A stretch of DNA of 64,000 bases from Candidatus Buchananbacteria bacterium CG10_big_fil_rev_8_21_14_0_10_33_19 (GTDB lineage Bacteria; Patescibacteriota; Patescibacteriia; 2-01-FULL-39-33). Numbering within the stretch: position 1 is the stretch's first letter; each line of letters begins with the position of its first letter. The notes below the pieces were generated by a model. The model was not told the DNA's origin and ran no database searches. It saw only the letters and a list, made by a program, of their open reading frames with translations. Below are positions 4,815-54,668 of the stretch, piece by piece. The position numbers and the translations under genes were made by a program. The stretch is taken from positions 161,570 through 225,569 of the forward strand of contig PEZY01000012.1 of the NCBI GenBank assembly GCA_002773855.1, written 5' to 3'.

Positions 4815-5939
4815 CTATTTGTATTGTAAAAAAGTTTGTTTCAGCATTTTGGCTTTAGAGAATTTTGCTGTGACATAATTTTTAGCTTGATTGGCTAGCT
4901 CTAAACTTTCAGTTTTATGATCAATTAAATATTTTATTTTATCGGCCAAGTCTTTATAGTTTTTAGGTTCTATTAAAATGCCGTTTTTATTATTTATCAT
5001 TTCTGGCACGCCACCAACATTAGTAGCGATAATTGGCAGGTTAGCAGTCATCGCTTCTAAAATAGAATAAGGCAGGCCTTCTTTAGTGGAGGTTGATACA
5101 TAGATATCCAAAGCTTTTAAATATTGTGAAGCTTGATCATGTTTACCAAGTAGTAAAAAATTATTTTTTAAATCTAGTTTGGTAATTAATTCTTCTAAAT
5201 CTGGTCTGAGGTTGCCATCGCCAATCACAACTCCAAGAATATCACTATTTTTTAATTCACCAACAGCGCGAATAAAATATTCTAAGCCCTTGGTTTGATA
5301 AAAATTAGCTACGGTACCAATAATAATTTTGTCAGTTGGTAGATTTAATTTTACTCTAGCTTCATCAGAATCTAGAAAATTTAGATTACTGATATCTAAA
5401 CCATTATAAATAACCACTGAATTTTTAATTTTTATGTTATGGTCTTTAGCTGATTGTTTGTCATAGTTTGATAAAAATATAATAGTATCTTTGTATTTGG
5501 CGGTTAACTTCTCAGTTAAATGATAAATTTTTTTATAAAGAAGAGAAATATTTTCATTAAAAGCCCAGCCATGAACCGTGTGAATTAGTTTACTTTTTTT
5601 AAGACCACTTAATCTGAAAGCATAAGAACCTTGAATACTGGGCTTACTGCTACTGGTATGGATAATATCAGGCTTTGTGGTTTTAAATAATCGGCGTAAT
5701 TCCCAAACAGCCAAAATATCATTAATCGGAGATATTGGCCTAACCATATATTTTAATTTAATTGTTTTAATGCCTTTAGATTCTAACTTATTAATTAGAG
5801 TCTCATCATGGTTTTTGCCAACCGCTACACTAATCTCGTAATTTAAAGCCCCAGGACTAGTTACTAGATCGTAGAGGTATTTTTGAGCACCACCCCATTC
5901 GGTTTGGGTAATGACATATAAAATTTTCTGCTTTTTCAT
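4815..5939 (-). CDS. Glycosyltransferase family 4 (GT-B)
   Basis: C-terminal EGLPYSILEAMTANLPIIATNVGGVPEM motif typical of GT4/GT1. Confidence 0.8.
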   Translation of the reverse strand: MKKQKILYVITQTEWGGAQKYLYDLVTSPGALNYEISVAVGKNHDETLINKLESKGIKTIKLKYMVRPISPINDILAVWELRRLFKTTKPDIIHTSSSKPSIQGSYAFRLSGLKKSKLIHTVHGWAFNENISLLYKKIYHLTEKLTAKYKDTIIFLSNYDKQSAKDHNIKIKNSVVIYNGLDISNLNFLDSDEARVKLNLPTDKIIIGTVANFYQTKGLEYFIRAVGELKNSDILGVVIGDGNLRPDLEELITKLDLKNNFLLLGKHDQASQYLKALDIYVSTSTKEGLPYSILEAMTANLPIIATNVGGVPEMINNKNGILIEPKNYKDLADKIKYLIDHKTESLELANQAKNYVTAKFSKAKMLKQTFLQYK

Positions 5940-6004
5940 AATTGACTTTTTAGCCTAAATATATAATAATATTAAGGTATATTTAAGTATTAATCAAGTA
6001 GACA

Positions 6005-6934
6005 ATGAAGTTTTTAGTAACTGGTGGCGCTGGCTTTATCGGCAGTAATTTGGTGGTTAAATTGATAGATATTGGCCATGAAGTGGTAGTAATTGATGAT
6101 TTATCTAGTGGTAATATTAAAAATCTTCAGCTAGTAATTGATCGGATAAAATTCGTTGAAGGTTCAATATTAGATTTAAATTTACTTAAAAAAGAGTTTA
6201 TAGGTATGGATTATGTACTTCATATGGCGGCCATGCCATCAGTGCCAAAATCAGTAGAGAAGCCACTAGAGACTAATGCGGCTAATATTGATGGTACTTT
6301 AAACGTTTTAATTGCTGCCAGAGATAGCGGTGTTAAGCGAGTGGTTTATGCCGCTTCCTCTTCTAGATATGGTAATTCGACAACAGATATTAAATCGGAA
6401 AGTTTACCAACTAAGCCTTTGTCACCTTATGCCTTGCAAAAATTTACTGGTGAAGAATATTGTCGAATTTTTTATAAAATTTACGGCTTGGAAACAGTGG
6501 CGACTATATTTTTTAATGTGTTTGGACCAAATCAAAATCCAGATTCGCCATACTCAGCTGTAATACCAAAGTTTATTAAATTAATGCTAAAAGGCGAGCG
6601 ACCAGTAATTTATGGTGATGGCCAAACTTCTCGTGATTTTACTTATGTTGATAATAATGTCAGTGCGGTTATTGCCGCTGCGACAGCTAAAGAGGCAGTG
6701 GGTCAATCAATTAATATTGCTTTGGGCGAATCTATTTCTTTAATTGAATTAGTTAAAAAAATAAATAAAATTTTAGGTACAAATATTGAACCACAATTTG
6801 AAGATTTTAGAACTGGTGATGTAAAGCATAGTTTAGCCGATATATCTTTAGCTAAAAAAGTGTTAGATTATCAAGTGGATGTAGATTTTAATAGTGGTTT
6901 GGAAAAAACAATTAATTTTTTAAGAAGTAATTAA
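6005..6934 (+). CDS. NAD-dependent sugar epimerase/dehydratase (extended SDR, UDP-sugar 4-epimerase-like)
   Basis: VTGGAGFIGSNL Rossmann motif. YAASSSRYG and YALQK (YxxxK) catalytic motifs. Confidence 0.8.
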   Translation: MKFLVTGGAGFIGSNLVVKLIDIGHEVVVIDDLSSGNIKNLQLVIDRIKFVEGSILDLNLLKKEFIGMDYVLHMAAMPSVPKSVEKPLETNAANIDGTLNVLIAARDSGVKRVVYAASSSRYGNSTTDIKSESLPTKPLSPYALQKFTGEEYCRIFYKIYGLETVATIFFNVFGPNQNPDSPYSAVIPKFIKLMLKGERPVIYGDGQTSRDFTYVDNNVSAVIAAATAKEAVGQSINIALGESISLIELVKKINKILGTNIEPQFEDFRTGDVKHSLADISLAKKVLDYQVDVDFNSGLEKTINFLRSN

Positions 6935-6942: not shown

Positions 6943-7797
6943 ATGGACAATATCAAGATTGGTTTTATTGGTCAGGGGTGGATTGGTAAAAATTATGCTG
7001 ATAATTTTGAGAACCGTGGTTACGAAGTAATTCGTTACGCCCTAGAAGAGCCCTATCTTAACAATAAAGAAAAAATTAAAGATTGTGACATTGTTTATAT
7101 CGCTGTGCCCACACCATCAACTCCTAAGGGTTTTGATAGCAGTATTGTACATGAAGCTATTAAACTAATTGGTGATGGCAAAGTGGCGGTAATTAAATCT
7201 ACTATTTTACCAGGTACTACAGAAACTATTCAAAAAGACTTTCCTAATGTTTTTGTCATGCATTCACCAGAATTTTTAACCGAGCGAACAGCCGCTTATG
7301 ATGTAGCTAATCCGGGTAGAAATTTGGTGGGTATCCCAATTGATAATGATGACTATAGGACAAAGGCTCAAGAAGTTTTAGATACTTTGCCATTAGCACC
7401 ATTGTCTAAAATTATTTCCGCCAAAGAAGCGGAACTGTTTAAATATATTAGGAATTGCTTTTTTTACACTAAAGTTATTTTTATGAATTTAGCTTATGAC
7501 TTGGCTCAGAAGAATGATTGTTCTTGGGAAACCATTCATACTATTATGAGTGCTGATCCTTGGATTGGTAATATGCATATTGATCCAGTTCACAAAAGTG
7601 GTCGGGGAGCCGGTGGACATTGTTTTATCAAAGACATGGCCGCTTTTGATGAGATGTATAAAAAATTAGTTGGCGATGAAGCTGGCCAGCAAGTTTTAAA
7701 AAGTTTACAAGCCAAAAATATTGAATTGTTGTTGTCTAGTCATAAAGATTTGGATTTACTGTCTGGGGTTTATGGCGAGGATATAATTAAAAAATAA
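6943..7797 (+). CDS. UDP-glucose/GDP-mannose dehydrogenase family protein (compact, 284 aa)
   Basis: N-terminal GFIGQGWIGK Rossmann. HSPEFLTERTAAYD resembles UDPGDH NPEFLREG. GGHCFIKD resembles the catalytic Cys region GGSCFPKD. Confidence 0.55.
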   Translation: MDNIKIGFIGQGWIGKNYADNFENRGYEVIRYALEEPYLNNKEKIKDCDIVYIAVPTPSTPKGFDSSIVHEAIKLIGDGKVAVIKSTILPGTTETIQKDFPNVFVMHSPEFLTERTAAYDVANPGRNLVGIPIDNDDYRTKAQEVLDTLPLAPLSKIISAKEAELFKYIRNCFFYTKVIFMNLAYDLAQKNDCSWETIHTIMSADPWIGNMHIDPVHKSGRGAGGHCFIKDMAAFDEMYKKLVGDEAGQQVLKSLQAKNIELLLSSHKDLDLLSGVYGEDIIKK

Positions 7798-7829: not shown

Positions 7830-8984
7830 ATGGAAAATAACAAGGTGAATGGCGTAGCCAGAGATGGTGGCCTGGGCCAAAAACCAAAAATTTTAATTTT
7901 CTCTTTAGCCTATCATCCTTTTGTAGGTGGGGCTGAAGTGGCTATCAAAGAAATTACTGATCGCTTGGGTGGTGATTTTGAGTTTGATATGGTGACCGCT
8001 AATTTAGATGGTCGTCAAAAGGCCACAGAAAAAATTGGCAATATTAATGTGCATAGAATTGGTAATGGTAAGTTGGGTAAATATTTATTTCCTTGTTTGG
8101 CTTATCGTTATTCTAAAAAACTTCAGGCTAAAAATAGTTATGATATGATCTGGGCGATGATGGCTAATCAGGCTGGCTGGGCAGCGATGCGATTTAAAAA
8201 GAAATTTCCAAAAGTAAAATATTTATTAAGTTTACAAGAAGGTGATAGTGAATGGGATATTTGGCTTAGAACTTTTTTTATTAGACCAATTTATAAATCT
8301 ATTTATCGCCGAGCGGACAAGATTCAGGCGATATCTAATTTTTTAAAGAATAGAGCAGTGAGATTGGGGGCTAAGGGTGATATTGTGGTGGTGCCCAATG
8401 GAGTTAAAGTCCAAAACGTAGAAATTAAAACGCAAAACTATAATTCAAAATTAAAACAAATAATCACTGTCTCTAGATTGGTGAAAAAAAATGGCGTAGC
8501 AGATTTAATTAAGGCTATGACTGATGTTAATGGCAAATTAATAATAATTGGTGATGGAAAATTAAAAAATAGCTTAGAGAGTTTGAGAAATAGATTAAAT
8601 CTAACTGACAAGATAGATTTTTGGGGAAAAATTGATAATCGTCAAGTTTATAATGCTTTAAGAGACACAACTGTTTTTGTACGTCCATCTTTAACCGAAG
8701 GATTAGGCAATGCCTTTTTGGAAGCGATGTCAGTCGGTGTACCAGTAGTCGGGACTAAAGTTGGTGGTATCCCTGATTTTTTGGAAGATAAAAAAACCGG
8801 TTATTTTTGTGAAGTAAAAAATCCCAAAAGCATTGCCAAAAAAATAAATTATATTTTAGCTGAAGAAAATAAGGCAGAGGTAGAGCAAGTTGTAGAAAAT
8901 GCTAAAAGATTAGTAGAAGATAGATATTCTTGGAATAGAATATATATTGATATTAAAAAAATTATAGATAAATTAATAAGTTAA
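7830..8984 (+). CDS. Glycosyltransferase family 4
   Basis: TEGLGNAFLEAMSVGVPVVGTKVGGIPDF GT4 C-terminal motif. Confidence 0.8.
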   Translation: MENNKVNGVARDGGLGQKPKILIFSLAYHPFVGGAEVAIKEITDRLGGDFEFDMVTANLDGRQKATEKIGNINVHRIGNGKLGKYLFPCLAYRYSKKLQAKNSYDMIWAMMANQAGWAAMRFKKKFPKVKYLLSLQEGDSEWDIWLRTFFIRPIYKSIYRRADKIQAISNFLKNRAVRLGAKGDIVVVPNGVKVQNVEIKTQNYNSKLKQIITVSRLVKKNGVADLIKAMTDVNGKLIIIGDGKLKNSLESLRNRLNLTDKIDFWGKIDNRQVYNALRDTTVFVRPSLTEGLGNAFLEAMSVGVPVVGTKVGGIPDFLEDKKTGYFCEVKNPKSIAKKINYILAEENKAEVEQVVENAKRLVEDRYSWNRIYIDIKKIIDKLIS

Positions 8985-8987: not shown

Positions 8988-11300
8988 ATGAAAATTCTAA
9001 TTACTGGCTCTGGTGGAATGTTGGGGAGCTCGATGATTCCAGTCTTAAGAGAGGAGGGGTACGATGTTTATCCGACAGATAAAAATCCAGTTGAGGGGAT
9101 TGAACTATTAGATGTTCGAGAATACGATCAGGTTTTGGCTTGGGCCAGTAGATTACAACCAGATTTTATATTTCATTTGGCAGCTGAGACAGATTTAGAA
9201 ATTTGCGAAAACGATCCAGAGTATGCTTATAGTACCAACACCATTGGTACTCAAAATGTGGCTTTGATTTGTAAAAAGTTGGGTATTAAAATGGTTTATA
9301 TTTGTACGGCGGGAATTTTTGATGGTAAAAAAGAAAGTTTTTATAATGAATTTGATGAAGCAATTCCTTTGTCGATTTATGGCAAAACAAAATTAGAAGG
9401 TGAAAAAATTGTTAAAGAAATGTTGCATGAGTATTTTGTGTGTCGTCCTGGTTGGATGGTGGGTGGTGGAGCTAAAGACAAAAAATTTGTTGGTCAAATT
9501 ATCAAACAAATTAGAGACGGTGCCAAAGAGTTGCATGCGGTTGATGATAAATTTGGCACCTCCACCTATACCAAAGATTTTTGTAAAAATTTAGCAGCTC
9601 TAATTAAGACCGAGCACTATGGTTTGTATCATATGGTGTCTCGTGGTTCAGCTAGTCGATATGATGTGGCCAAAGAAATTGTGAAAATTTTAAATCGCCC
9701 AGATATTACTGTTCATAGTGTCCACTCTGATTATTTTGCTAAGCGTTATCCAGTGACTCGGCCACGTTCGGAAATGTTGGATAATTTAATGTTGGATTTA
9801 CGGGGTTTAAATTTAATGCGTAATTGGCGAGAAATATTGCCAGAATATATTAATGAACATTTTTCTGATGTTATTTTAAAAAACGATATTAATAATATGG
9901 ACAACAGTGAATCAAAAAATAAAAAAAAGTTTATTGTCATTGGTGCTGGCCTCGCCGGACTATCTACGGCTTATAAGTTATTACAGCAAGGGGCTGATGT
10001 GACTATTTTAGAAAAGGCCAAGGAAGTGGGCGGACTAGCTAGAACTATTAAGTATAAGGATTATTATTTTGATTTTTCAGCTCATCGCTTTTCGGCAAGT
10101 AAAAAAGATTTGATTGAGGAAATGAAACAAATAATGGAAGGTAATTTTACTGTTCGCTCAAAAAGATCTCGAATATTGATGTGGAACAAGTGGCTTAATT
10201 ATCCATTTGAATTATTAGATTTGATGTTGCACATGCCTAAGTTGTTGGCTATTAGAGCGGTCTTGGATTATATTTATACTTTAATTAAAGAGAAAATAAA
10301 ACCGACTAAAATTGTTTCTTTTAAGGATTGGTTTATCGCTAGCTTTGGTTATACTTTATATAAAACAAATTGCGAGCCTTATGCTACTAAGCATTGGCGC
10401 ATTGATCCCGGACAAATTTCGTCAGAGTGGGGTGAAGCTCGTTCACCAGCTAGTTTTAATTTAAAAACCATTATTGCGGATTTGATTACCAAGAAATATG
10501 CTAATGAGTTGGGTGCCGATAATCCTTATCCAGATGCGGATAGCTTCTATTATCCCAAGACTGGTGGCGTTGGCTCTATTGCCAATCGTTTTGCAGATGA
10601 AATTAGAAACATGGGCGGCAAAATTTACACTGAAGCAGAAATTACCAAAATTGATTTGTCTGGTGACAAAGCAGTAGTGGAATTTAATAAATATGGCAAC
10701 AGTCAAAAAATTGAAGCCGACAAAGTAGTGTCGACAATTTCAGTTTATATTTTATCAAATTTAGTTACTCCAGCTGTACCAGAAGAAGTCAAGGCTAGAT
10801 TGTCAAAGTTAACATACCTGAATACTATTTTTATAAATGTAATAATTAATCGTCCAAAAATTAGTGATGATTCTTGGTTATACTTTCCACAACCATCAGA
10901 AGAAATTATTTTTAATCGAGCAGTCGAATTTAAGAATTGGAGCGAAGATATGGCACCAAAAGACAAAACTAGCTTATGTTTGGATATATCTTGTACTAGT
11001 AGTGAGAAAATATGGACAGAGGATAATGATGCAGATTTAATTGCTAAAGCTAAAGAAGGACTAGTGAGGTCAAAAATTATTTCTAGTGTTGATGAGGTAG
11101 AAGAAACTTTTGTATTGAAAATTCCTTTCACTTATCCAGTTTATGATTTGGGTTATATTGATAATTTGAGACCAGTTGTAGAATCACTAGAGAAAAATGA
11201 TAAGTTAAAATTAGTGGGGCGTATTGGTAAGTTTAGTTATTCTAATATGGATGACGTTATAGCCGATGGTTTTGCTTTGGCTAATGATTTAATGAAATAA
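8988..11300 (+). CDS. Bifunctional fusion: N-terminal RmlD-like NAD(P)H sugar reductase (SDR) plus C-terminal FAD-dependent Glf/UDP-galactopyranose-mutase-like flavoprotein
   Basis: N-terminus MKILITGSGGMLGSS ... YGKTKLEGE (RmlD-like). After a Lys-rich linker (NSESKNKKK), KKFIVIGAGLAGLSTAYKLL ... EKAKEVGGLARTI ... FSAHRF resembles the Glf FAD-binding N-terminus. There is no internal stop or start. Confidence 0.65.
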   Translation: MKILITGSGGMLGSSMIPVLREEGYDVYPTDKNPVEGIELLDVREYDQVLAWASRLQPDFIFHLAAETDLEICENDPEYAYSTNTIGTQNVALICKKLGIKMVYICTAGIFDGKKESFYNEFDEAIPLSIYGKTKLEGEKIVKEMLHEYFVCRPGWMVGGGAKDKKFVGQIIKQIRDGAKELHAVDDKFGTSTYTKDFCKNLAALIKTEHYGLYHMVSRGSASRYDVAKEIVKILNRPDITVHSVHSDYFAKRYPVTRPRSEMLDNLMLDLRGLNLMRNWREILPEYINEHFSDVILKNDINNMDNSESKNKKKFIVIGAGLAGLSTAYKLLQQGADVTILEKAKEVGGLARTIKYKDYYFDFSAHRFSASKKDLIEEMKQIMEGNFTVRSKRSRILMWNKWLNYPFELLDLMLHMPKLLAIRAVLDYIYTLIKEKIKPTKIVSFKDWFIASFGYTLYKTNCEPYATKHWRIDPGQISSEWGEARSPASFNLKTIIADLITKKYANELGADNPYPDADSFYYPKTGGVGSIANRFADEIRNMGGKIYTEAEITKIDLSGDKAVVEFNKYGNSQKIEADKVVSTISVYILSNLVTPAVPEEVKARLSKLTYLNTIFINVIINRPKISDDSWLYFPQPSEEIIFNRAVEFKNWSEDMAPKDKTSLCLDISCTSSEKIWTEDNDADLIAKAKEGLVRSKIISSVDEVEETFVLKIPFTYPVYDLGYIDNLRPVVESLEKNDKLKLVGRIGKFSYSNMDDVIADGFALANDLMK

Positions 11301-11302: not shown

Positions 11303-14300
11303 ATGATTAAAGGTTTAGTCAAAAAACATAAAGTAATAATAATAATTTTTTTGTTGTCTTTGTTTTTGCGACTACTAACCTTTGGGCTTCTAATTGATAA
11401 TTATGGCACCGGTAGTTTTTATTTGGCCAATAATACTGAAGTTTTAGATGGTAATGATACTCAGCATTATGTGATTATTGCCAGTAATATTTCTGAACAC
11501 GGAGTGTATTCTAGATTCATAAATGAACCGTTTGAACCAGATAGTTTGCGTACACCACTTTTGCCATTGTATTTTTTGCCGTTTATTCATTTTTTAGGAT
11601 TTAGCAGTGTTTGGCTAGCAATGTTATTATTAGTAATTATTTTGTCGGCGATACCGGTAGAAGCTTATTATTTGGCAAAATTATTTTTAAGTAACAAGCT
11701 TAGCTTGGTGGCGGGATTATTAGTGGCTTTGCAGCCACTAATGATTTACTTCACTAGTATTACCGAGCCCGATATGCTGATGATTTTTTTGTTCTTGCTA
11801 GTGATTTATCATTTTTGTCTTTATTATATTAATAATACTTCTAAGAATTTATTGTTGTCAGCTCTGCTGTTAGGATTAATGACTTTGGCTAAGCCAGTTG
11901 GTATTTATATCGCGGTCATCTTGGTGATTTTTGTGGCTTTAAAAATTATAAAAAATAAAAAAGTTTTTCTAAATTTATTTTTATTTATTTTTATTTTTGG
12001 TTTGATTATATCGCCCTGGTTGTATAGAAATTATCAAGTTTTTGGCACAGTAGATATTAGTGCTATTAAATCGACCAATCTATATTTGTATTATACTGTT
12101 GGTTTTGAAAAAAATAATGAAGTCTTGCCAGTTGATTTAGGTGAAAGACAGCCAGTTAAAAATATTAAATATCAAAAGGAGTATGTTAGCTTGGCTGTAG
12201 ATAGAATTTTAAATCAGCCGATAGCTTATACCATGCATCATTTAATTGGTACTCTAAGATCGATGTTAGCCGGTGATTTGCAAGAAATTTATCACAAGGG
12301 TCATTCTAATATTTTGCCGTTTAGCTTAGATTTAGAGGGTCGAGTAAATATAACCGACAGCCTACAGTCTGGTAAATTGCTAGTGGTTATAAAATCAATT
12401 TTATTGAATTTTAATTTGTTACTTAGATATTTAATTTTAACCATTCTTTATATTCTGGTAGCTTTTGGCTGGTTGATGTCGTATAAGAGTAATAAAAAAA
12501 CTTTTGTTTTGTTTACCATGTTTGGTGTTTTAATTGCTTATTTCTTTTTGTCTTCTGGACCGTTTGTTTCGCCAAAATATCGTTTGCCAATTATGCCACT
12601 CTTGTTAATTATGTCTTTATATACTTTTTCTAATATGAAAAAAAATAAAATTAATGACAAAAAAATAGTTATTGCATCGGGCACTTATTTACCAGAAATT
12701 TCTGGTCAGTCTACCTTTGTCGATAACTTCAAAAAAAATTTACCAGCTGATTATGAATTAGTAATTGTGGCCTATGGTAATAAAACCGAAGTGGTAAATA
12801 ATAATATTTATTATATTAAACGAAATATATTTAGACATCTTAATTATTATTTAACTATTAGAAATCAGGCCAAGGACGCAGTGATTATTTATGCTCAAGA
12901 TTTGGTGTCATCAGGCTTACCAGCAGCCTTGGCCAAAAGATCAAGTAATTATTTAGTTGTTCGTATTGGTGGTGATTTCTTGTGGGAGAAGATGGTAAAT
13001 ACTGGTAAGACCGAAGTGCCAATTAGTCAGTATTACCAGCAGCCAAAAAGTTTGTTAGAAAAACTTTATTTAAAATTATATCACTATGTTATAAATAAAA
13101 GTGATAAATTAATTTTTAATACACCCTGGCCACAGAAGTGGTATGCTGATTATTTTAATATTAGTATTAATAAAATTAGTGTGATTCAAAATCCGTTTAC
13201 TATTAATAATAAAATTGATGTAAATGATTCAGTAATTGGCGATGAAATTATTTATGCTGGTCGTTTTATACCGCTTAAAAATTTAGAAAGATTGATCGAA
13301 GCTTTTAAAAAAATAAAAACTGATAAAAAATTAGTAATTATTGGTGCTGGTCCACAATATAATGATTTACAAAAATTAGCCGCTAGCGATCAGCGAATTG
13401 CTATTGTTGATAAAATGAATCAGGCACAGTTATGGCAGAGAATTGCCAAATCTTATTTGTTTATTTTGCCAAGTATTTCTGAATTCAATCCTAACGTAGC
13501 TATTGAAGCTCTGAGTTTGCACAAACCAGTTATTTTAACTAAAGAGGTTGGCTTGTCTGATGATTTAAAAAGTAAGTTTGTTTTAGCTGATCCATTAAGT
13601 GTTGATAGTATTGAAAAACAAATTGAATATTTATTGAATGGTGAAAATTATAAAAACTTTTTAGATAATTTGTCTATCGGCGATTTGTCTTATGATTGGT
13701 CAAAGGTGATGAGTGAGCATATTGAGGTGTTTAACTCTATTATTAATCAAATAAATGTATTAAATATTGGCACTGACAGAGGTTTAGCTGGCGGTAAAAA
13801 ATTAGGAGATGCTATAGCTAGACATCGAGCTTATGGCGAACACGTAGATAACTTAGATATCATCACTTATTCTAGTAGTAGAGATAATTTACTTGGCCTT
13901 AAAATATCGGATAATGTTACAGGCTATGCTACTAATTCGCTATTTAAAATATTTTTTGTATTTGATGTTATTAAAATATTTAGAAAAATAAATAAGCAAC
14001 ATAAAATTAATATCGTTGTTTGTCAGGATCCTTTTGTACCAGCTTTGGCCGGATTATTTTTAAAAATATTTTATCATGTTAAATTACAAATTAATTTTCA
14101 TGGTGATTTTTGGCAGAACAAAAATTGGCTTAAGGAAAATCCAATTAATTTTATATTTTTGTTAATATCAAAATTTACTGTTCCCTTTGCTGATGCTATT
14201 AGAGTGATGAGTGATGGTCAAAAATTAAAGTTAGGTTCTTATGCTAAAAAAGCTAGGGTGATATCAACACCAGTAGATATTAAAAAAATTTTAGATTCTA

Positions 14301-37038: not shown

Positions 37039-37040
37039 CT

Positions 37041-45021: not shown

Positions 45022-45050
45022 GAGGATCATAAAATGTGGTCCTCTTTTTA
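45022..45050 (+). terminator. Intrinsic terminator (GAGGATCA ... TGGTCCTC stem plus T5)
   Basis: Stem-loop plus U-tract immediately after the stop of the 44549 CDS. Confidence 0.55.
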
Positions 45051-46216: not shown

Positions 46217-46312
46217 ATTTTTAACTTTAAAATTACCGTTCGTTTGAGCGGTTTTTTTATTTGTATTTTGTGGTTTTACATGGCATAATTATAGGGAAAT
46301 AATATTAAGATA

Positions 46313-46981: not shown

Positions 46982-47323
46982 ATGCCAATTCAATTCATAT
47001 TAGTGATTTTAATTATTTTGGCAGTTTTAAGATTGCTTTATCAATTAAAAAATAAAAATATTGGCTTTAATCAGTTTTTTACTTGGCTAGTTATTTGGTT
47101 GGTGGCTATTGTAATTATTAGTCAACCAAAAATTACTACCTATTTAGCCACAATAGTTGGCATTGGTCGAGGTGTTGATTTGGCAATTTATGTTTCGATT
47201 ATTGTAATTTTTTATTTAATGTTTAGACTTTTACTGAGAATTGAAAAGATTGAAAAAGATATTACTAAAATTGTTAGGACTGATTCTTTGAAAAAAAATA
47301 ACGATCATGAAAATAAACACTAA
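46982..47323 (+). CDS. Small membrane protein (DUF2304-like GT2 partner)
   Basis: 113 aa, 3 TM segments, directly follows the GT2 gene. Confidence 0.35.
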   Translation: MPIQFILVILIILAVLRLLYQLKNKNIGFNQFFTWLVIWLVAIVIISQPKITTYLATIVGIGRGVDLAIYVSIIVIFYLMFRLLLRIEKIEKDITKIVRTDSLKKNNDHENKH

Positions 47324-48174: not shown

Positions 48175-49224
48175 ATGAATAAAAAAATTACTATAATTAT
48201 TGTTACTCATAATTCTCGGCATTATTTGCCAGACTGTTTTGATAGTTTAAAGCGTCAAGACTATCCAAATAATTTGGTTAAAATTGTGGTGATTGATAAT
48301 AATTCTACTGACAGTACTGTTGGTTACATAAAAGAAAAAATGCCAGCAGTTAAATTGATTACTAATCGGCAGAACATGGGTTTTGCTACGGCTAATAATC
48401 AGGGTTATTATTTGGCGAAGAAAAATAATTCTGATTATATTGTCTTATTAAATCAAGACACTATTGTCGAAAAAAATTGGCTATCTCACATGGTAAAAAT
48501 TGCTGAAAAAGATCAGCAGATAGCTGCGGTTCAGCCAAAATTATTACTACATCCAGATACTAATAAAATTAATAGTTTTGGTAATAGTGTGCATTATTTA
48601 GGTTTTGCTTTTTGTAATTATTATAAATGTAAGGATAATTTAGGGATTGCTGATTATTTTGATATTCCTTACCCATCAGGAGCGGCTGTTTTAATAAAAA
48701 TGTCAGCTTTAGAGCAGACTGGACTCTTTGATAATAAATTATTTATGTATCATGAAGATGTCGATTTGGGTTGGCGACTTAGACTAGCTGGTTATAGAGT
48801 TGTTTTGGATCCTCTCTCAGTTGTTTATCATAAGTATAGTTATAGTAAGGCCAAGTATAAATTTTATTATATGGATCGTAATCGATTTATTGTGTTGTTA
48901 CAAAATTATCGCTTGTTAACAATTTTGTTAATACTGCCAATGTTAATTTTTATGGAATTAGGCATATTATTTTTCTCCATAAAAAATGGTTGGTTCAAAG
49001 AAAAATTAAAGGGTTATGGCTGGATTATTTTACATTTACCATCAATTTTAATGGAGCGTATAAATGTTCAATTTAAAATTAGAAAAGTTAAAGACAGGGA
49101 AGTGATTAAATATTTTATTGGTGTTATTAAATTTCAAGAAATTGATAATCCTATTTTAAAATTTATAGTGAACCCACTGATGCAAATTTATTGGTTTGTA
49201 ATTAAGAGATTAATTTTTTGGTAA
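48175..49224 (+). CDS. GT2 glycosyltransferase (rhamnosyltransferase-like) with C-terminal TM segments
   Basis: ITIIIVTHNSRHYLPDCFDSLKRQDYP ... VIDNNSTDST. Confidence 0.75.
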   Translation: MNKKITIIIVTHNSRHYLPDCFDSLKRQDYPNNLVKIVVIDNNSTDSTVGYIKEKMPAVKLITNRQNMGFATANNQGYYLAKKNNSDYIVLLNQDTIVEKNWLSHMVKIAEKDQQIAAVQPKLLLHPDTNKINSFGNSVHYLGFAFCNYYKCKDNLGIADYFDIPYPSGAAVLIKMSALEQTGLFDNKLFMYHEDVDLGWRLRLAGYRVVLDPLSVVYHKYSYSKAKYKFYYMDRNRFIVLLQNYRLLTILLILPMLIFMELGILFFSIKNGWFKEKLKGYGWIILHLPSILMERINVQFKIRKVKDREVIKYFIGVIKFQEIDNPILKFIVNPLMQIYWFVIKRLIFW

Positions 49225-49495: not shown

Positions 49496-49520
49496 ACTGG
49501 ATAGTAAATCCAGTTTTTTT
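49496..49520 (+). terminator. Intrinsic terminator (ACTGGAT-AGTAA-ATCCAGT plus T7) overlapping the alr stop codon
   Basis: Perfect 7-bp stem plus U-tract. Confidence 0.5.
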
Positions 49521-50649
49521 ATATATAAAATCTTGGTAGGCTTTCTCGTAGTCTAGTAACTATTTCGTAGTTGATGGTATTAGCCCAGTCGGCTAACTGT
49601 TCGACAGTAATTATCTCAGATTGTTGTTGACCAATTAAAACTACCTCATCACCGCTTTTTACGTGACCACAATCAGTAATATCTATAATTGTGACATTCA
49701 TGCAAATACGGCCTAAGACTGGGGCTTTCTTACCGTTCACCAAAACATAAGCTTTATTGCTTAGTTTTCGATCGTAGCCGTCGTAGTAACCAACGGGAAT
49801 AGTGGCGGCGGTGGTAGGGCGAGTAGTTTTGTAAGTACAGCCATAACCAACCAAACTGTTTTCCGGTATGTTCTTTATTTGACCGACAATGGTTTTAAAT
49901 TCTAAGGCTGGTTGTAGAATCATGTTTTTTTCTTTAGTCAATTTGGCAACATCCGGGCCAGGGTAATAGCCGTAAACAGAAATACCAGGTCTAATTAAAT
50001 TACCAATATTATCTCTCGATAGTAATACCGAAGCACTTTTATGGCAGTGAATAATTAAATCATGACCAATGATTTTTTTTAGATTATTGATAGCGATTTT
50101 AAATTTTTCTAATTGTCGGTTGAAATAAGCAGGGTTAAGTGGATCGTCAGAATTGGCAAAGTGTGTCGCTAGGCCTTCGATTTTTATATTAGGTAGTTTT
50201 AATATTTCTTTAGCTAAATTAGATGAGTGCTCTAGAAGAACGCCATGTCGGTGCATGCCAGTATCTATTTTTAGGTGAATATTAGCAGTTTGATTTCTAG
50301 ACTTACCAAGATCTGATAATTTTTTAGCGTAATTAATATTGCTAATAAATAATCTAAGATTTAAATCAAAAATTTTTTCTAATTCATATTCAGCTACAAA
50401 GCCAATAACTAAAATAGGATGATTAATGCCAGCAGATCTAACTCTTTGGGCTTCTTCTGTAGAATTAACAGATAACCATTCAACACCAGATTCAATAAGT
50501 ATTTTAGTAGTTTCTATTAAGCCATGGCCGTAAGCATTGGCTTTAACACAAGGAGAAATTATGGTGTTTGGACCATTTATTTCTCGTATTGTTTTGATGT
50601 TATGCGCTATTTTAGCTTTAGAGATTTCGATCCAGGCTAGGTGGTTCAT
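49519..50649 (-). CDS. alr: Alanine racemase
   Basis: PLP-binding motif VKANAYGHG near the N-terminus; ~376 aa. Confidence 0.9.
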   Translation of the reverse strand: MNHLAWIEISKAKIAHNIKTIREINGPNTIISPCVKANAYGHGLIETTKILIESGVEWLSVNSTEEAQRVRSAGINHPILVIGFVAEYELEKIFDLNLRLFISNINYAKKLSDLGKSRNQTANIHLKIDTGMHRHGVLLEHSSNLAKEILKLPNIKIEGLATHFANSDDPLNPAYFNRQLEKFKIAINNLKKIIGHDLIIHCHKSASVLLSRDNIGNLIRPGISVYGYYPGPDVAKLTKEKNMILQPALEFKTIVGQIKNIPENSLVGYGCTYKTTRPTTAATIPVGYYDGYDRKLSNKAYVLVNGKKAPVLGRICMNVTIIDITDCGHVKSGDEVVLIGQQQSEIITVEQLADWANTINYEIVTRLRESLPRFYI

Positions 50650-50791: not shown

Positions 50792-51307
50792 TTAATTGGT
50801 AGAAAAAAACATGTTAATTAATACACCGGCATAGTAGCTAATGACAATGACCATCGTAGCTGTTAATAAATGCTCAAATACCATTTTTGCCGGACTCATT
50901 TTATTTGATTTAGCAATGATTAAGCTAAGTATTGTTAATAAAAATATTCCCCAAAGACAACTAATCAGTACCGCTGTTTGGAGACTAAATAAAACTATCG
51001 GGATAATAAAAGTGATAGCAAATACAAATTTTGATAAAAAGGTAGCAATAGTGGCTTGCCAAACAGCTCGTGGGTGCTTACCATCAGTAGATTCCTCTGA
51101 GATATGTATACCAAAAGCATCAGACATGGCATCGGCAATAGCAATAGTTAGGACACCGCCTAAAACGGCTAATTTTGAGCCGGTGCTTTCTAATAGACCG
51201 ATCATTAGGCCTAGAGTGGTAATTACCCCAGATGTTAGGCCAAAATTAAGCCCAGATTTTAAAGAGTCGTTTAATTTAATGAAGGTTTTTTTCTTTGACC
51301 AAAACAT
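50792..51307 (-). CDS. Small polytopic membrane protein, VIT1/CCC1-like
   Basis: GLTSGVITTLGLMIGL ... AIADAMSDAFG pattern; 171 aa. Confidence 0.45.
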   Translation of the reverse strand: MFWSKKKTFIKLNDSLKSGLNFGLTSGVITTLGLMIGLLESTGSKLAVLGGVLTIAIADAMSDAFGIHISEESTDGKHPRAVWQATIATFLSKFVFAITFIIPIVLFSLQTAVLISCLWGIFLLTILSLIIAKSNKMSPAKMVFEHLLTATMVIVISYYAGVLINMFFSTN

Positions 51308-51388: not shown

Positions 51389-51417
51389 TTGACAAAGTTT
51401 TATATATATGTTAATAT
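51389..51417 (+). promoter_or_regulatory. Strong sigma70-like promoter: TTGACA - 17 nt - TAATAT
   Basis: -35 at 51389-51394 and -10 at 51412-51417. The -10 overlaps the six-frame-track start at 51408, so the real start is more likely the ATG at 51480. Confidence 0.5.
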
Positions 51418-51479
51418 ATAAAGTTACTAGAGTAACAATTGTTCATTTCAATGTTATAACTCGAAAGGAATTAATTGAG

Positions 51480-51839
51480 ATGGGTAGACCCAGAAGTCGT
51501 AGAATTTTTTATACCAATTGGCAAGAGGCCAGTGTGGCTACTAGAAAACTTGGTATTACTAGTTATCTGGATTATAAGCGGAGATACAAGGAGGATGCGA
51601 GGTTACCGTCTAATCCCAATACGTTTTATTCAGATTTTCCTGGGCGGCCGATGTTTTTAAGGGGAGAATCTAAGAATATTTATTCAACCTGGCAAGAGGC
51701 CAGTGTGGTTGCCAAAAAACTTGGCATTGTTAAGTGCTTGGATTATAATCGGAGGCATAAGGAGGATGCGAGGTTACCGTCTAATCCCAATACGTTTTAT
51801 TCAGATTTTCCTGGGTGGAAAATTTTTTTGAGTAAATAA
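51480..51839 (+). CDS. Small protein made of two tandem ~50-aa repeats (W-QEAS-V-KLGI-DY-RR-KEDARLPSNPNTFYSDFPGW), resembling the repeat found N-terminal to some phage/ICE integrases
   Basis: Start moved from the track's 51408 to the ATG at 51480 (AAGGA 10 nt upstream). The two repeats are also near-identical at the DNA level, with a 57-nt identical stretch. Confidence 0.5.
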   Translation: MGRPRSRRIFYTNWQEASVATRKLGITSYLDYKRRYKEDARLPSNPNTFYSDFPGRPMFLRGESKNIYSTWQEASVVAKKLGIVKCLDYNRRHKEDARLPSNPNTFYSDFPGWKIFLSK

Positions 51840-51860
51840 GACTGGTAAATAATGACATAA

Positions 51861-51886
51861 CTGAGGTTTTTCGACCTCAGTTTTTT
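51861..51886 (+). terminator. Intrinsic terminator (CTGAGGT-TTTTCG-ACCTCAG plus T6)
   Basis: Stem-loop plus U-tract immediately after the repeat-protein stop. Confidence 0.6.
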
Positions 51887-51961: not shown

Positions 51962-53119
51962 ATGCATAATATTAGAGACAAAAAAGTAGCCATTGTGGTG
52001 TGTGCTTGGCCGCCTAGTGGTGGTGGGATTGGTAATAATGCTAGTTACCATTTACATTACTTAAAACAACTGGGTTACAAGGCCCAGGCTTTTACGCCGC
52101 AGTATAAAAATATTTCTATTATTAGTGATCCAGCTATTGAATACTTGCCAGTAACTTTGCCAATCGGTAAGGCTGGTTTTATTTTCTCATTGTATAAAAA
52201 ATTAAAAGACTTTGATATTATTCATCTTTATTATCCGTTTTTTGGTACGGACATAATAATTTTGTTTTTTAAATTATTGAATAGGAATAAAAAAATAATT
52301 GTTCATTATCAAATGGATCCAGTAGGACGAGGTTATCAAAAAATTATTTTTAAAATTCACATTAAAATATTTTTACCTTTAATTGTTAAGGTTAGTAATA
52401 AGATATTTGTTTTATCTTGGGATAACGCTAGACATACGTATTTAAATACGTATTTAAATACGTATAATAAAAAATTTATTGAAATCCCAAATGGAATTGA
52501 CACCAGTATATTTAAAATAAAAACAAAAAATATTGATCTAGCTGGCCAATATAACATTACAAGTAAAAATAAATTATTAATTTTTGCTGGCGGTTTGGAT
52601 GACCAGCACTTCTTTAAGGGGGTTGATGTTTTAATTAGGGCATTTGATAAAATATCAAAAAATAATAAAGAGGTTAAGTTAATGATTATCGGTGATGGTA
52701 ATAGAAAGAAATTTTATGAAAGATTAGTTGATGATTTCGGATTGGGTGAGCGAGTTATTTTTACCGGTTGGATTGATAATAAAAAATTGGCGGACTATTA
52801 TAATTTGGGCAGTGTTTTTGTTTTACCATCTACCGAGAGAACTGAAAGTTTTGGTATTGTAATAGCTGAGGCCCAGGCTTGTGGTTTGCCAGCTATTGTG
52901 TCGAACTGGCCGGGTAGTCGTTTAACTATTGAAGATGGCAAAACAGGGTTATTAGTGGAACCTAAAAATGAAAATGATTTGACTAATAAAATTATCAGAT
53001 TATTAAATGATAATGATTTAAGACAGGCTATGAGTAGAAAGGCTATAGTTCGAGCTAACGAAAAATATTCTTGGGACTCTATTATAATCAAAATTGATTC
53101 TGTCTATAAAAATTTATGA
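51962..53119 (+). CDS. Glycosyltransferase family 4
   Basis: ESFGIVIAEAQACGLPAIVSNWPGS. Confidence 0.8.
   Translation: MHNIRDKKVAIVVCAWPPSGGGIGNNASYHLHYLKQLGYKAQAFTPQYKNISIISDPAIEYLPVTLPIGKAGFIFSLYKKLKDFDIIHLYYPFFGTDIIILFFKLLNRNKKIIVHYQMDPVGRGYQKIIFKIHIKIFLPLIVKVSNKIFVLSWDNARHTYLNTYLNTYNKKFIEIPNGIDTSIFKIKTKNIDLAGQYNITSKNKLLIFAGGLDDQHFFKGVDVLIRAFDKISKNNKEVKLMIIGDGNRKKFYERLVDDFGLGERVIFTGWIDNKKLADYYNLGSVFVLPSTERTESFGIVIAEAQACGLPAIVSNWPGSRLTIEDGKTGLLVEPKNENDLTNKIIRLLNDNDLRQAMSRKAIVRANEKYSWDSIIIKIDSVYKNL
52435..52468 (+). repeat. In-frame 12-nt tandem repeat (TACGTATTTAAA x2.8) encoding TYLNTYLNTY inside the GT4 gene
   Basis: Seen directly in the sequence. Confidence 0.6.
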
Positions 53120-53496
53120 AAAAAAATAATTTAAAATTTTTTTATATCATCGCAAGTATTATTTGGATGCTGTTGATTTTTTGGGAATCATCAATTGGTG
53201 ATTATTCGGTGGTGCCAGGTGTTAGCGATGGTCACAATGATGTAATGTCTTCCATTGTTCATGTGCTAACTTATTTGATATTGTGTTTTTTATTTATTAA
53301 ATCTTTTATCGTAAATGGCGTTAGAAGAAATCAGGCTATAATTTATGGATTTTTATTGTCGGCTTTATATGGGGCGACAGATGAATGGCATCAATTTTTT
53401 GTACCCGGTCGTGAGATGCATTTTGGTGATTGGCTACTAGATGTTGCTGGCTCATTGATTGTTTTTAGTTTTTATAAATATAAAATTAAAAAATGA
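53116..53496 (+). CDS. VanZ-like membrane protein
   Basis: DEWHQFFVPGREMHFGDWLLDVAG matches the VanZ family motif; 126 aa. Confidence 0.65.
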   Translation: MKKNNLKFFYIIASIIWMLLIFWESSIGDYSVVPGVSDGHNDVMSSIVHVLTYLILCFLFIKSFIVNGVRRNQAIIYGFLLSALYGATDEWHQFFVPGREMHFGDWLLDVAGSLIVFSFYKYKIKK

Positions 53497-54668
53497 AACT
53501 AGCTATTATTCATTCAATTTATAAACCCTATTCTCGTGGCGGTGCTGAAGTAGTAGTAGAGAATATTGCTAATGGTTTTAAAAAAAACGGTAATGATGTT
53601 TTGGTTATTGCTTTGGGTTATAAAAATGAAATTAAAGATGTAGATGGCGTAAAAGTTTATTATATTAAACCTTTTAATTTGTTTAATTTTTTAGATATTA
53701 ATTCTAAGCCGGCTTGGTTCAGGTTGCCTTGGCATATTATTGATATGATTAATGATGTTCAGACTTGGAGAATTTATAAGATTTTAAAGCAAGAAAATCC
53801 AGATTTAGTATTGACCCATAATCTCAAAGGCTTAGGTTATTATATTCCTTGGCTCTTGAAAATTATGAAGCTAAGACATATTCATACGATTCATGATATG
53901 CAATTAATTCATCCGTCTGGGCTACTGCAAAAAAATCAAAAACTTAATTTGGTTGTGAGTTTTTATGCTTGGCTTAATAAAAAATTATTTAATAAAGTAG
54001 AAAAAGTTATTTTTCCATCTAATTATATAAAAACTGCTTATGAGTCTTATGGGTTTTTTGCTAGTGCTGATAAATTGGTAGTAGCTAACCCTGTAGAAAT
54101 TCATGATTATGATTTCAAGCCAAAATGTAAAAATAGTCAAAATCCGCAGTTATTGTTTTTGGGTCAAGTCGAAGAATATAAGGGAATTCTAGATTTAATT
54201 GCGGCGACTAAAAAAATAAAAATAAATTTTACATTGCATATTGTCGGTGATGGCTCGGCTTTGGCTAAAGCTAAAGATTTAGTGACTAATGATTTAAGAT
54301 TTAAGTTCTATGGTCGTTTGTCACAAGCTGAATTAAAAAATAATATTTGGTCTAAAATTGATTTATTAATTAACCCAACTAAAGTGCCAGAAAGTTTTGG
54401 CCTGGTAGTAGCCGAGGCTTTTTCTTATGGCATACCAGTTTTAGCCTCTGACATTGGAGCGATACCAGAGTTAATCGATGATGGTAAAAATGGCTGGTTG
54501 TTTAAACCGGGTGACATTGACGAACTTAGTTATAAGATTAAGTCTATTACTGGTAGTATTTGTGCTTATGAATCAATTGGTCTTTTAGGGCATCAAAAGG
54601 TTAAAGATATGAGCATTGACCACTATTTGAATAAGCTAGAGGAATTTGCTAAGATAACATCATCTTAA
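53493..54668 (+). CDS. Glycosyltransferase family 4
   Basis: ESFGLVVAEAFSYGIPVLASDIGAIPEL. Confidence 0.8.
   Translation: MKLAIIHSIYKPYSRGGAEVVVENIANGFKKNGNDVLVIALGYKNEIKDVDGVKVYYIKPFNLFNFLDINSKPAWFRLPWHIIDMINDVQTWRIYKILKQENPDLVLTHNLKGLGYYIPWLLKIMKLRHIHTIHDMQLIHPSGLLQKNQKLNLVVSFYAWLNKKLFNKVEKVIFPSNYIKTAYESYGFFASADKLVVANPVEIHDYDFKPKCKNSQNPQLLFLGQVEEYKGILDLIAATKKIKINFTLHIVGDGSALAKAKDLVTNDLRFKFYGRLSQAELKNNIWSKIDLLINPTKVPESFGLVVAEAFSYGIPVLASDIGAIPELIDDGKNGWLFKPGDIDELSYKIKSITGSICAYESIGLLGHQKVKDMSIDHYLNKLEEFAKITSS

Follow-up and report, generated by a model that had tools for sequence, protein, structure and literature searches.

The DNA analysed here, referred to as the window, is a stretch of 64,000 nucleotides from Candidatus Buchananbacteria bacterium CG10_big_fil_rev_8_21_14_0_10_33_19 (assembly GCA_002773855.1, contig PEZY01000012.1, positions 161,570 to 225,569), in which an earlier inspection of the letters without database searches (the sequence-only reading) had seen an exceptionally large cluster for the biosynthesis of a cell-surface glycan, covering positions 4815-54668. 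Pfam scans covered all 56 non-spurious open reading frames (ORFs) of the window that reach 100 aa, and NCBIfam scans most of them. The source contig is JGI Ga0100379_10000008 (333,660 bp), on which the window lies at approximately 140,168-204,167, and the independent JGI gene calls agree in protein length with the ORFs of the window. Identical proteins were found in at least 24 assemblies, on contigs of up to 565 kb; the GenBank labels of these proteins include a 'Candidatus Falkowbacteria' metagenome-assembled genome (MAG) besides a Ca. Buchananbacteria MAG. In line with the small low-GC genome that had been guessed from the letters, the organism is a Candidate Phyla Radiation (CPR) bacterium; the GC content is 0.28-0.37, the GC skew is positive throughout, and neither tRNAs nor Rfam families turned up when the full window was scanned.

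The range 4815-54668 is densely coding (45 ORFs occupying 48,264 of 49,854 bp), and a glycosyltransferase or phosphoglycosyltransferase domain was found in 18 of these 45. Since about 1-2% of the genes of a typical prokaryote genome carry such glycosyltransferase domains, their density here is far beyond chance. At 6005-38942 lies a run of 27 ORFs, all on the plus strand, whose spacers have a median of 3 bp and do not exceed 61 bp. These roughly 33 kb had been described as a run of overlapping genes on a single strand; the single strand was confirmed, but true overlaps are confined to five junctions. Between positions 36000 and 55000, 23 terminator-like hairpins were found where 7.7 were expected (about three-fold enriched), sitting in intergenic gaps, and three genes with functions outside glycan synthesis take up about 2.1 kb of the range at 49.5-51.9 kb. 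Four of the hairpins and the three genes are the following:

38950-38974: terminator-like hairpin, bidirectional, ending the 27-gene run
45022-45044: terminator-like hairpin
46235-46252: terminator-like hairpin
51859-51882: terminator-like hairpin
49519-50649: alanine racemase (Pfam)
50792-51307: VIT protein (Pfam)
51408-51839: INT_rpt protein (Pfam)

The hairpins are predicted to mark the ends of transcription units, the part 3' of 38942 comprising several such units. The view that nearly 50 kb are devoted to glycan assembly holds for most of this coding sequence, less the 2 kb of unrelated genes and with the part beyond the run split into units.

Gene order was compared across several relatives. 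L018 is the upstream stretch of the window's own contig and L004 comes from a second Buchananbacteria species; L010 and L012 represent one CPR lineage (710-kb contig) and L013 another, while L014-L017 are four remoter Patescibacteria loci picked via homologues of the VTC protein described below (L015 is from Komeilibacteria).

The genes for priming, cytoplasmic extension, export and polymerization or ligation of a lipid-linked glycan are listed below (GT4 calls by Pfam):

3-2042, plus strand: Wzy_C membrane protein with C-terminal TPR (Wzy_C 80 bits; 10 predicted transmembrane (TM) segments)
4815-5939, minus strand: GT4 (Glycos_transf_1 127 bits, also Glyco_transf_4; 45% identity to the syntenic GT4 of L004)
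7830-8984, plus strand: GT4 (Glycos_transf_1 126 bits)
15591-16619, plus strand: GT4
16623-17666, plus strand: GT4
18678-19829, plus strand: GT4, next to the CotH gene
28854-30185, plus strand: MOP-family (Wzx-type) flippase (Polysacc_synt_3 81 bits, cutoff 23; Polysacc_synt 60 bits; at least 9 TM segments)
30195-31382, plus strand: predicted GT-A-fold glycosyltransferase (residues 1-285) with C-terminal cupin, divergent, no Pfam model
35824-37038, plus strand: GT4
37689-38942, plus strand: GT4, last gene of the 27-gene run
39740-40855, minus strand: GT4
40839-42173, minus strand: WbaP/WcaJ-type priming transferase (Bac_transf 222 bits; 5 TM segments)
51962-53119, plus strand: GT4
53493-54668, plus strand: GT4

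Together with the fusion at 11303-14884 (see below), there are 12 GT4 domains in 11 ORFs (Glycos_transf_1, E 1e-17 to 1e-54). The earlier counts of twelve or more GT4 and four GT2 enzymes, four short-chain dehydrogenase/reductase (SDR) proteins (one of them fused to a flavoenzyme), two GtrA proteins and two methyltransferases (one ORF being a fusion of both), and of a flippase, a priming phosphoglycosyltransferase and a deacetylase, were reproduced by the family searches (MOP, Bac_transf/TIGR03025 and NodB matches for the last three), and Pfam upheld the GT4 and GT2 assignments on which the cluster had been made to depend. The priming transferase passed the cutoff of TIGR03025 (365 bits, cutoff 296) and matched WcaJ with 292 bits. 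The Wzy_C ORF is cut by the start of the window (768 aa in full length on the source contig) and has orthologues in L004, L015 and L017. Two groups of GT4 genes are conserved as blocks: L012 and L013 keep the orthologues of 15591-19829 (GT4, GT4, SDR, GT4) in unchanged order at 51-69% identity, and those of 35824-38942 (GT4, methyltransferase, GT4) are 60-85% identical in L010. The full set of Wzx/Wzy parts that had been claimed is thus present as regards the priming transferase, the flippase and Wzy_C, but a chain-length regulator and an unambiguous polymerase were not found in the window.

The protein encoded at 30195-31382 gave no Pfam match at cutoff, its weak GT2 match having an E of 0.006, and a PDB search with the single sequence was uninformative. 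It belongs to a family with 125 homologues in CPR and Nanoarchaeota, which consist of the ~285-aa domain and a cupin, sometimes with a SIS fusion. AlphaFold (AF2) models had a pLDDT of 94.6 for the full-length protein and 92.9 for the N-terminal domain. Cupin matches dominate a Foldseek search with the full-length model, while the N-terminal model retrieved TarP (6h1j, E 8.6e-6, TM-score 0.43) as well as RmlT, TarS and SpsA. Two residues, E90-D91, are invariant in the family and H92 is nearly so; they lie after strand 4, at the position of the DxD motif. On these models the protein is best described as a divergent GT-A glycosyltransferase with a cupin, of a family not recognised so far. The occurrence of the family in many CPR lineages and in a Nanoarchaeota (DPANN) MAG suggests an exchange of its cassette among ultra-small bacteria and archaea. 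A role as Wzy, considered because of the position after the flippase, was ruled out, the protein being soluble with zero TM segments.

A second group of genes encodes components of transmembrane glycosylation, for which polyprenyl-phosphate sugar synthases, GtrA proteins and GT-C membrane domains had been proposed; at the level of domains this proposal is supported:

11303-14884, plus strand: PMT_2 GT-C with two GT4 domains, 1193 aa (PMT_2 38-41 bits; two Glycos_transf_1 stretches)
14881-15594, plus strand: short GT2, polyprenyl-phosphate sugar synthase-like (Glycos_transf_2 101 bits)
24179-26110, plus strand: NodB-type deacetylase (residues ~26-250; Polysacc_deac_1 63 bits) with a 9-TM GT-C-like domain (260-643)
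26094-26954, plus strand: GT2 with two C-terminal TM helices, AglJ/ArnC/PgfS-like (Glycos_transf_2 101 bits)
26955-28046, plus strand: GtrA fused to a class I S-adenosylmethionine (SAM) methyltransferase (GtrA_DPMS_TM 36 bits, cutoff 26; Methyltransf_25 81 bits; 4 TM segments)
43999-44430, plus strand: GtrA flippase (GtrA_DPMS_TM 98 bits; 4 TM segments)
46313-46975, plus strand: PpgS-like GT2 (PpgS model NF058614 196 bits, cutoff 370)
46982-47323, plus strand: DUF2304 small membrane partner with 3 TM segments, directly 3' of the PpgS-like GT2 (83 bits)
48175-49224, plus strand: GT2 resembling MftF, rhamnosyltransferase and GlfT1
56546-57796, plus strand: 10-TM protein of 416 aa, beyond the range first considered, no Pfam or NCBIfam match

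Four ORFs were assigned to GT2 by Pfam (14881-15594, 26094-26954, 46313-46975 and 48175-49224). For the three short ones (14881, 26094 and 46313) all best NCBIfam models are polyprenyl-phosphate sugar synthases (AglJ, dolichyl-P hexose transferase, PpgS, PgfS and ArnC; for 14881-15594 the first three of these), each below its equivalog cutoff. By its score the 46313-46975 protein is related to PpgS but not an equivalog, and the GT2 at 26094-26954 is 75-78% identical to its counterparts in L012 and L013. The GtrA and methyltransferase parts of 26955-28046 are separate genes in L013. Similarly, the domains of the 1193-aa fusion, which has about nine TM segments in its first 420 aa and is called identically on several contigs, are two or three separate genes in the relatives L013 and L004; a contig scan with the fusion retrieved distant relatives only, the best of them from Ca. 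Buchananbacteria (51%).

The NodB half of 24179-26110 has no signal peptide, and a homologue search with the full fusion returned only 6 proteins. An exhaustive search with its TM domain yielded no more than 117 clusters, most of them free-standing proteins of ~385 aa, and 9 of 54 such relatives matched PMT_2 and 1 of 54 GT87 (Pfam). A profile of this domain aligned with the PMT_2 domain of 11303-14884 (hhalign 93%, E 2.8e-7), and this profile similarity makes the membrane half a predicted GT-C-like domain. In GT-C enzymes the catalytic acidic residues follow the first TM helix; a GGDExxYF motif is located in the first loop of the 24179 membrane domain, after the first TM helix, and from its position the predicted topology has an extracellular loop and an intracellular NodB domain. 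The protein encoded at 56546-57796 is probably a further GT-C transferase, as judged from its match to the same GT-C-like profile (hhalign 79%, E 1.5e-5).

Three consecutive genes at 19829-24123, all with matches above cutoff, form a CotH/VTC/DUF4956 triad:

19829-22681, plus strand: membrane-anchored CotH-kinase-like protein with right-handed beta-helix (CotH 70 bits, Beta_helix 47 bits)
22683-23432, plus strand: cytoplasmic VTC protein (polyphosphate-polymerase-type tunnel domain; VTC 158 bits)
23437-24123, plus strand: DUF4956 membrane protein with MgtC-like TM region (DUF4956 43 bits; weak MgtC match, E 0.006)

The first protein aligns to B. cereus CotH (5jd9, E 5.7e-9) with the PWD segment kept; its Lys/Arg-rich N-terminus is followed by one TM segment at 13-31, an anchor from which the protein is predicted to be extracytoplasmic. 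For the VTC protein 727 homologues were found, the top ones all from Patescibacteria, and a PDB sequence search gave no solved relative. DUF4956 adjoins VTC in seven of seven loci examined, and in all seven Patescibacteria loci (the window and L012-L017) the triad sits inside Wzx- or ABC-type glycan clusters, those of L014-L017 jointly holding Bac_transf, Wzy_C (with or without TPR), Peptidase_S8, GtrA, GT2, GT4, PMT_2, flippases or ABC exporters, and methyltransferases. The eukaryotic VTC complex passes polyphosphate across a membrane. By analogy, a speculative role to which we give little credence is that of a trans-membrane phosphorylation device, in which VTC would make polyphosphate, DUF4956 would pass it outward and CotH would phosphorylate a glycan or glycoprotein held by the beta-helix; the triad would then be a standard part of CPR envelope glycan clusters and not Pel-specific. 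If true, such a device would answer how substrates are phosphorylated in a compartment free of ATP. In the literature the triad appears only as accessory genes of pel operons, in streptococci, clostridia and bifidobacteria (PMC7112168, PMC12345266), and mutants of Streptococcus intermedius in the CotH-like and DUF4956-like genes have lowered Pel polysaccharide (PMC12345266); the same 2025 study reports that it did not find synteny of the triad outside Pel loci (PMC12345266).

Genes for sugar precursors are placed at the start of the 27-gene run, within it and downstream:

6005-6934, plus strand: SDR epimerase/dehydratase, TviC/GalE-like (Epimerase 197 bits)
6943-7797, plus strand: short NDP-sugar dehydrogenase-like protein (UDPG_MGDP_dh_N and central domain only)
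8988-11300, plus strand: RmlD-type 4-keto-6-deoxyhexose reductase fused to a flavoenzyme like UDP-galactopyranose mutase (UGM) (RmlD_sub_bind 207 bits, Amino_oxidase 103 bits)
17670-18674, plus strand: SDR epimerase (Pfam)
31391-31930, plus strand: KdsC-like HAD phosphatase (Pfam/NCBIfam)
31945-32769, plus strand: AroE-family dehydrogenase (TIGR00507 score 224, above the cutoff of 200)
32782-34362, plus strand: nucleotidyltransferase with kinase-like C-terminus (PDB matches RmlA, LicC, HddC)
34376-35386, plus strand: class II aldolase/GatZ-like protein (Pfam/NCBIfam)
35367-35762, plus strand: cupin, isomerase-like (Pfam/NCBIfam)
45206-46216, plus strand: SDR (Pfam)

The best NCBIfam model for 6005-6934 is TviC (234 bits, under the TviC cutoff). 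The 284-aa product of 6943-7797 matches profile positions 71-279 of 413 and lacks the C-terminal nucleotide-sugar-binding domain, for which the following gene leaves no space; either the short version is functional or the gene has decayed. The two halves of 8988-11300 were both recovered in the PDB, the first with RmlD (5u9c, E 6.5e-48) and residues 315-752 in an end-to-end alignment with the eukaryote-type UDP-galactopyranose mutases 4u8i/3ute (E ~2e-23). Pairs of a reductase and a mutase make dTDP-fucofuranose, and by this analogy the fusion suggests a furanose or a 6-deoxy sugar as the product. At the far end of the window a second FAD amine-oxidase-family gene begins (62867-64000; its product has 528 aa on the source contig), which shares its broad family with the UGM-like half.

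The five genes at 31391-35762 form a cassette that probably makes a special activated sugar, as judged from their families. Its AroE-like enzyme, which is kept within the same cassette in the relative L010, probably acts on a sugar-derived ketone and not in aromatic amino-acid synthesis. The C-terminal 300 aa of 32782-34362 contain a kinase-like motif (HGDLQFDN...DW, of the form HGDxxxxN...DW) with a weak APH match (E 0.02), and the L010 orthologue bears APH and SIS domains; a PDB sequence search with the 34376-35386 protein gave no informative match. Two logics fit the cassette, an NDP-heptose-like one (isomerase, kinase, phosphatase and nucleotidyltransferase, from non-orthologous parts) and an NDP-alditol one (reductase and nucleotidyltransferase). 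In L010, L011 and the P0081 locus the cassette is again found together with the GT-A+cupin family. Relatives keep the kinase-like/nucleotidyltransferase with the phosphatase and the GT-A+cupin protein, accompanied by SIS isomerases, a ribulose-phosphate epimerase or transketolase, and GT9.

Enzymes for modification and further genes found among the glycan genes are:

28049-28804, plus strand: conserved soluble protein (UniRef name 'BioF2-like acetyltransferase domain')
37041-37688, plus strand: SAM methyltransferase (Pfam)
42301-43998, plus strand: secreted subtilase (Peptidase_S8 153 bits)
47307-48173, plus strand: sulfotransferase-fold protein (Sulfotransfer_3 29.4 bits, cutoff 27; Sulfotransfer_1 26.5 bits, cutoff 22)

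The protein of 28049-28804, whose position is kept in L012 and L013, had no Pfam match even at E <= 1 and is possibly a FemAB/BioF2-like acyl- or aminoacyl-transferase. The predicted sulfotransferase was recovered as a fold above the Pfam cutoffs, but with marginal scores only; it had no NCBIfam match, and neither ATP sulfurylase nor APS (adenosine phosphosulfate) kinase, which would supply the sulfate donor PAPS, was found in the window. The subtilase is followed by GtrA, GT2 and SDR genes in an order (Peptidase_S8-GtrA-GT2-SDR) that recurs beside a priming transferase and Wzy_C in L015, and in L017 a Peptidase_S8 gene comes after Wzy_C, which adjoins the priming transferase. Given this synteny, the subtilase gene is not an interruption of the glycan genes, and its product may process a glycoprotein substrate.

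The glycan genes continue upstream of the window. A secreted protein of 1240 aa (signal peptide ...VVPASA|AY) is encoded at 1361-5083 of L018, some 2.8-6.5 kb upstream of window position 1; it is rich in Thr (12.7%), Ser (11.9%) and Ala (10.9%), its Ser+Thr content of 24.6% comparing with a median of 10.7% for the proteins of the window. It had no Pfam or PDB relative. The gene order is 1240-aa protein, membrane-anchored TPR protein, PMT+PMT_2 GT-C (555 aa, ~860 bp downstream of the 1240-aa gene; a PDB sequence search with it was uninformative) and Wzy_C. This block is kept in L004, with identities of 36.5% for the full-length 1240-aa protein, 40% for the PMT protein and 35% for Wzy_C; after it come orthologues of the first two GT4s of the window. 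From its composition, its secretion signal and its conserved adjacency to a PMT-type GT-C and Wzy_C, the 1240-aa Ser/Thr-rich protein is the most plausible acceptor of an S-layer-type O-glycosylation. The earlier idea of an S-layer or glycoprotein system is supported to this extent, but no recognised S-layer domain came into view. Another possible surface protein is encoded between glycolysis genes at 59623-60603; it is secreted, has 326 aa and bears CARDB and bacterial TSP3 repeats.

Most of the core order is kept in L010/L012 and L013, with 50-78% protein identity. The shared core consists of PMT_2-GT4, GT2, GT4, GT4, GT4, VTC, DUF4956, NodB-GT-C, GT2, GtrA/methyltransferase, the ~250-aa protein and the flippase. 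The core SDR is kept only in L012, and CotH is found before VTC in L012 and after the flippase in L013. Between the core genes the relatives swap entire cassettes, including radical-SAM methyltransferases, GT9 and transketolase.

These domain identities and fusions, the predicted topology and the conserved gene order are the observations from which we infer the substrates, the order of the steps, the acceptor and the role of the triad. The best explanation as a whole, to which we assign a probability of roughly 0.6, is a single envelope glycosylation locus, and it is with the same degree of confidence that we regard it as the main cell-envelope glycosylation locus of Ca. Buchananbacteria, of about 57 kb when the part just upstream of the window is counted. 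In this model, activated unusual sugars would be provided by the four SDRs, the RmlD/UGM-like fusion and the kinase-like/nucleotidyltransferase-HAD-AroE-aldolase-cupin cassette. The WcaJ/WbaP-type phosphoglycosyltransferase would prime polyprenyl phosphate, and about 14 cytoplasmic Leloir domains (12 GT4, 1 GT2 and GT-A+cupin) would extend the lipid-linked oligosaccharide, which SAM methyltransferases and perhaps the sulfotransferase would modify. After export of the oligosaccharide by the MOP flippase, the Wzy_C-TPR protein would polymerise or ligate it, and at least three GT2/GtrA/GT-C systems would add sugars outside the membrane (cf. PMC8035078, PMC11127046). The NodB-GT-C protein would transfer an amino sugar that has lost its N-acetyl group and has possibly been modified again, in the manner of the Arn and mycobacterial GalN pathways, and the triad, with CotH outside, VTC inside and DUF4956 in the membrane, would add a phosphate-related modification or a control step. 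The acceptor would be the 1240-aa secreted Ser/Thr-rich protein, in an S-layer-type O-glycosylation.

Several findings weigh against this explanation. Hairpins and unrelated genes split the downstream third, which may serve different products. Wzy_C could not be split into polymerase, ligase or O-oligosaccharyltransferase, its best NCBIfam model (putative O-glycosylation ligase) scoring 39 against a cutoff of 188, and no Wzz/PCP chain-length regulator was detected by Pfam among the window ORFs of at least 100 aa. None of the glycosyltransferases reached an NCBIfam equivalog cutoff, so that no sugar or linkage can be assigned to them. The marginal sulfotransferase match and the kinase call on 32782-34362, which is below threshold (APH E 0.02), count in the same direction. 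The acceptor lies outside the window, its candidacy drawn from composition, secretion signal and conserved adjacency, and the genes in view include no LCP ligase, sortase or recognised S-layer domain.

It is possible, though in our judgement unlikely, that the range is instead an island of several independent adjacent pathways, namely a Wzx/Wzy heteropolysaccharide, a lipid-linked decoration of other polymers, and housekeeping glycolipid or cell-wall GT4s. In its favour, the hairpins, with 23 found against 7.7 expected, part at least six units 3' of 38942, the alanine racemase, VIT and INT_rpt genes break up 49.5-51.9 kb, and relatives exchange entire cassettes; in Lactococcus, moreover, one GtrA flippase serves three polymers (PMC8035078). 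Against such independence stand the 33-kb run with its median spacer of 3 bp, the core order kept across lineages and the presence of just one priming transferase and one MOP flippase in the window.

Somewhat less probable again is a secondary cell-wall polymer (teichoic-acid-like or rhamnan-like) linked to peptidoglycan and not to protein. CPR cells are monoderm, the GT-A enzyme is structurally nearest to TarP, TarS and RmlT, glycosyltransferases of wall teichoic acid, and the nucleotidyltransferase/phosphatase/reductase cassette could give an NDP-alditol or NDP-sugar phosphate; the phosphate-related CotH/VTC module and the nearby alanine racemase would also suit a wall polymer. Yet the window is without a TagF-type (TagF/TarL) glycerol- or ribitol-phosphate transferase, an LCP ligase or a TagGH-type ABC exporter (no Glyphos_transf, LytR_cpsA_psr or ABC2_membrane match in Pfam), and the PMT-family GT-C adjoins the Ser/Thr-rich secreted protein in a conserved adjacency.

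A Pel-like, synthase-dependent exopolysaccharide locus, which the described association of the triad with pel and the flanking GT4, deacetylase and SDR epimerase genes would suggest, is largely refuted and very improbable: the best PelF score was 62.8 bits against a cutoff of 100, the CotH-adjacent GT4 had no PelF match, equivalents of PelD, PelE and PelG were not detected in the window by Pfam or NCBIfam, nor was DUF4832, and a priming transferase, a Wzx-type flippase and Wzy_C were found instead. The least credible explanation, that part of the locus is an anti-phage or 'conflict' glycosyltransferase system, draws on secondary GT4-conflict matches of several GT4s (26-58 bits), but these are always much weaker than the generic GT4 matches to those residues, nucleases, toxins and other defence partners were not seen, and the context is wholly one of sugar-precursor and lipid-carrier machinery.

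The remaining genes are as follows:

2091-4653: two genes between Wzy_C and the first GT4
38985-39656, minus strand: NUDIX hydrolase (Pfam)
44549-45007, plus strand: 152-aa protein
53116-53496, plus strand: VanZ-like membrane protein between two GT4 genes (Pfam)
55719-56111: inorganic pyrophosphatase homologue, 130 aa, fragment-sized

The first gene of 2091-4653 encodes a secreted alpha/beta-hydrolase of 727 aa (LCAT/PGAP1/lipase-like) that ends in a weak adhesin-type domain, and the second a 124-aa protein with 4 TM segments.

CPR bacteria (Patescibacteria) make up a large share of bacterial diversity and live attached to host cells, and to our knowledge their envelope is essentially uncharacterised. 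The literature search found no item on Buchananbacteria glycosyltransferases and nothing specific on Patescibacteria glycan clusters. The locus is a lineage-conserved candidate for a surface glycan in attachment, phage recognition or host specificity, and it also names a candidate glycoprotein target. In a Parcubacterium, 20 glycosyltransferases were counted in the whole genome and the high content was noted (PMC5220378); about 20 such glycosyltransferase domains are present in this single locus. The pathway types are already known, and the sequences are public with automatic annotation. New are the conserved CPR architecture with its unusual fusions, the GT-A+cupin family and its cassette, the triad beyond the Pel context and the linkage to a candidate surface glycoprotein; the triad, the cassette, the additional GT-A enzyme, the fusions and the upstream extension had all been overlooked by the sequence-only reading. 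The triad, the NodB-GT-C fusion and the GT-A+cupin family, which occurs in CPR and DPANN with its own cassette, are thereby set in a comparable and experimentally approachable context.

Among known systems, rhamnose-rich and enterococcal Epa-type loci (PMC9574508) resemble the locus in their size of tens of kb, the monoderm host, the conserved core with variable cassettes and the extracytoplasmic GT-C decoration. They differ in that the genes in view here include neither a rhamnan ABC-transporter core nor RmlA, RmlB or RmlC, that a flippase carries out the export, and that no LCP ligase was found. The PpgS-like GT2 with its DUF2304-type small membrane partner recalls mycobacterial PpgS-Rv3632, Rv3632 being presumably a member of DUF2304. 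More broadly, the ArnC/ArnD/ArnEF/ArnT system for lipid A Ara4N and PpgS-Rv3632-Rv3779 for GalN on arabinogalactan (PMC3485146) share with the locus a GT2 synthase, a NodB de-N-acylase that does its work prior to flipping, a small flippase and also a PMT_2-like GT-C. Here, in contrast, deacetylase and GT-C are one polypeptide, equivalents of ArnA and ArnB are lacking, the acceptors differ, and the cutoffs were missed for PpgS (196 of 370 bits) and ArnC (72 of 529 bits).

Wzx/Wzy and S-layer/O-glycosylation clusters (Tannerella forsythia, PMC6120980; Gram-positive slg, PMC2943079) have in common with the locus Bac_transf, many Leloir glycosyltransferases, methyltransferases, a MOP flippase and Wzy_C, as well as a Ser/Thr-rich secreted protein encoded alongside. 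Compared with them, no chain-length regulator was found, the acceptor is a candidate, Wzy_C bears TPR and has a PMT-family GT-C and a secreted subtilase as partners, and the ~57 kb are large for a CPR genome. With the Gram-positive pel accessory genes (PMC7112168, PMC12345266) the locus shares CotH, VTC and DUF4956 in adjacent genes at a surface-polysaccharide locus, whereas here pel genes and DUF4832 are missing, CotH carries a beta-helix instead of FN3, and the setting is a Wzx/GT-C-type cluster of Patescibacteria. The three-component transmembrane glycosylation systems (GtrA/GtrB/GtrC; CsbB/GtcA/YfhO; Lactococcus CsdAB/CD/EF with CflA; GacI/GacJ; PMC8035078, PMC11127046) likewise combine a short GT2 resembling polyprenyl-phosphate sugar synthases, GtrA-type flippases and a GT-C. 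In the Buchananbacteria locus one such GT2 has C-terminal TM helices and another a 3-TM DUF2304 partner, at least three sets are present in one locus, and two GT-C domains diverge too far to be recognised by Pfam; NodB is fused to one GT-C, two GT4 domains to another, and a methyltransferase to a GtrA.

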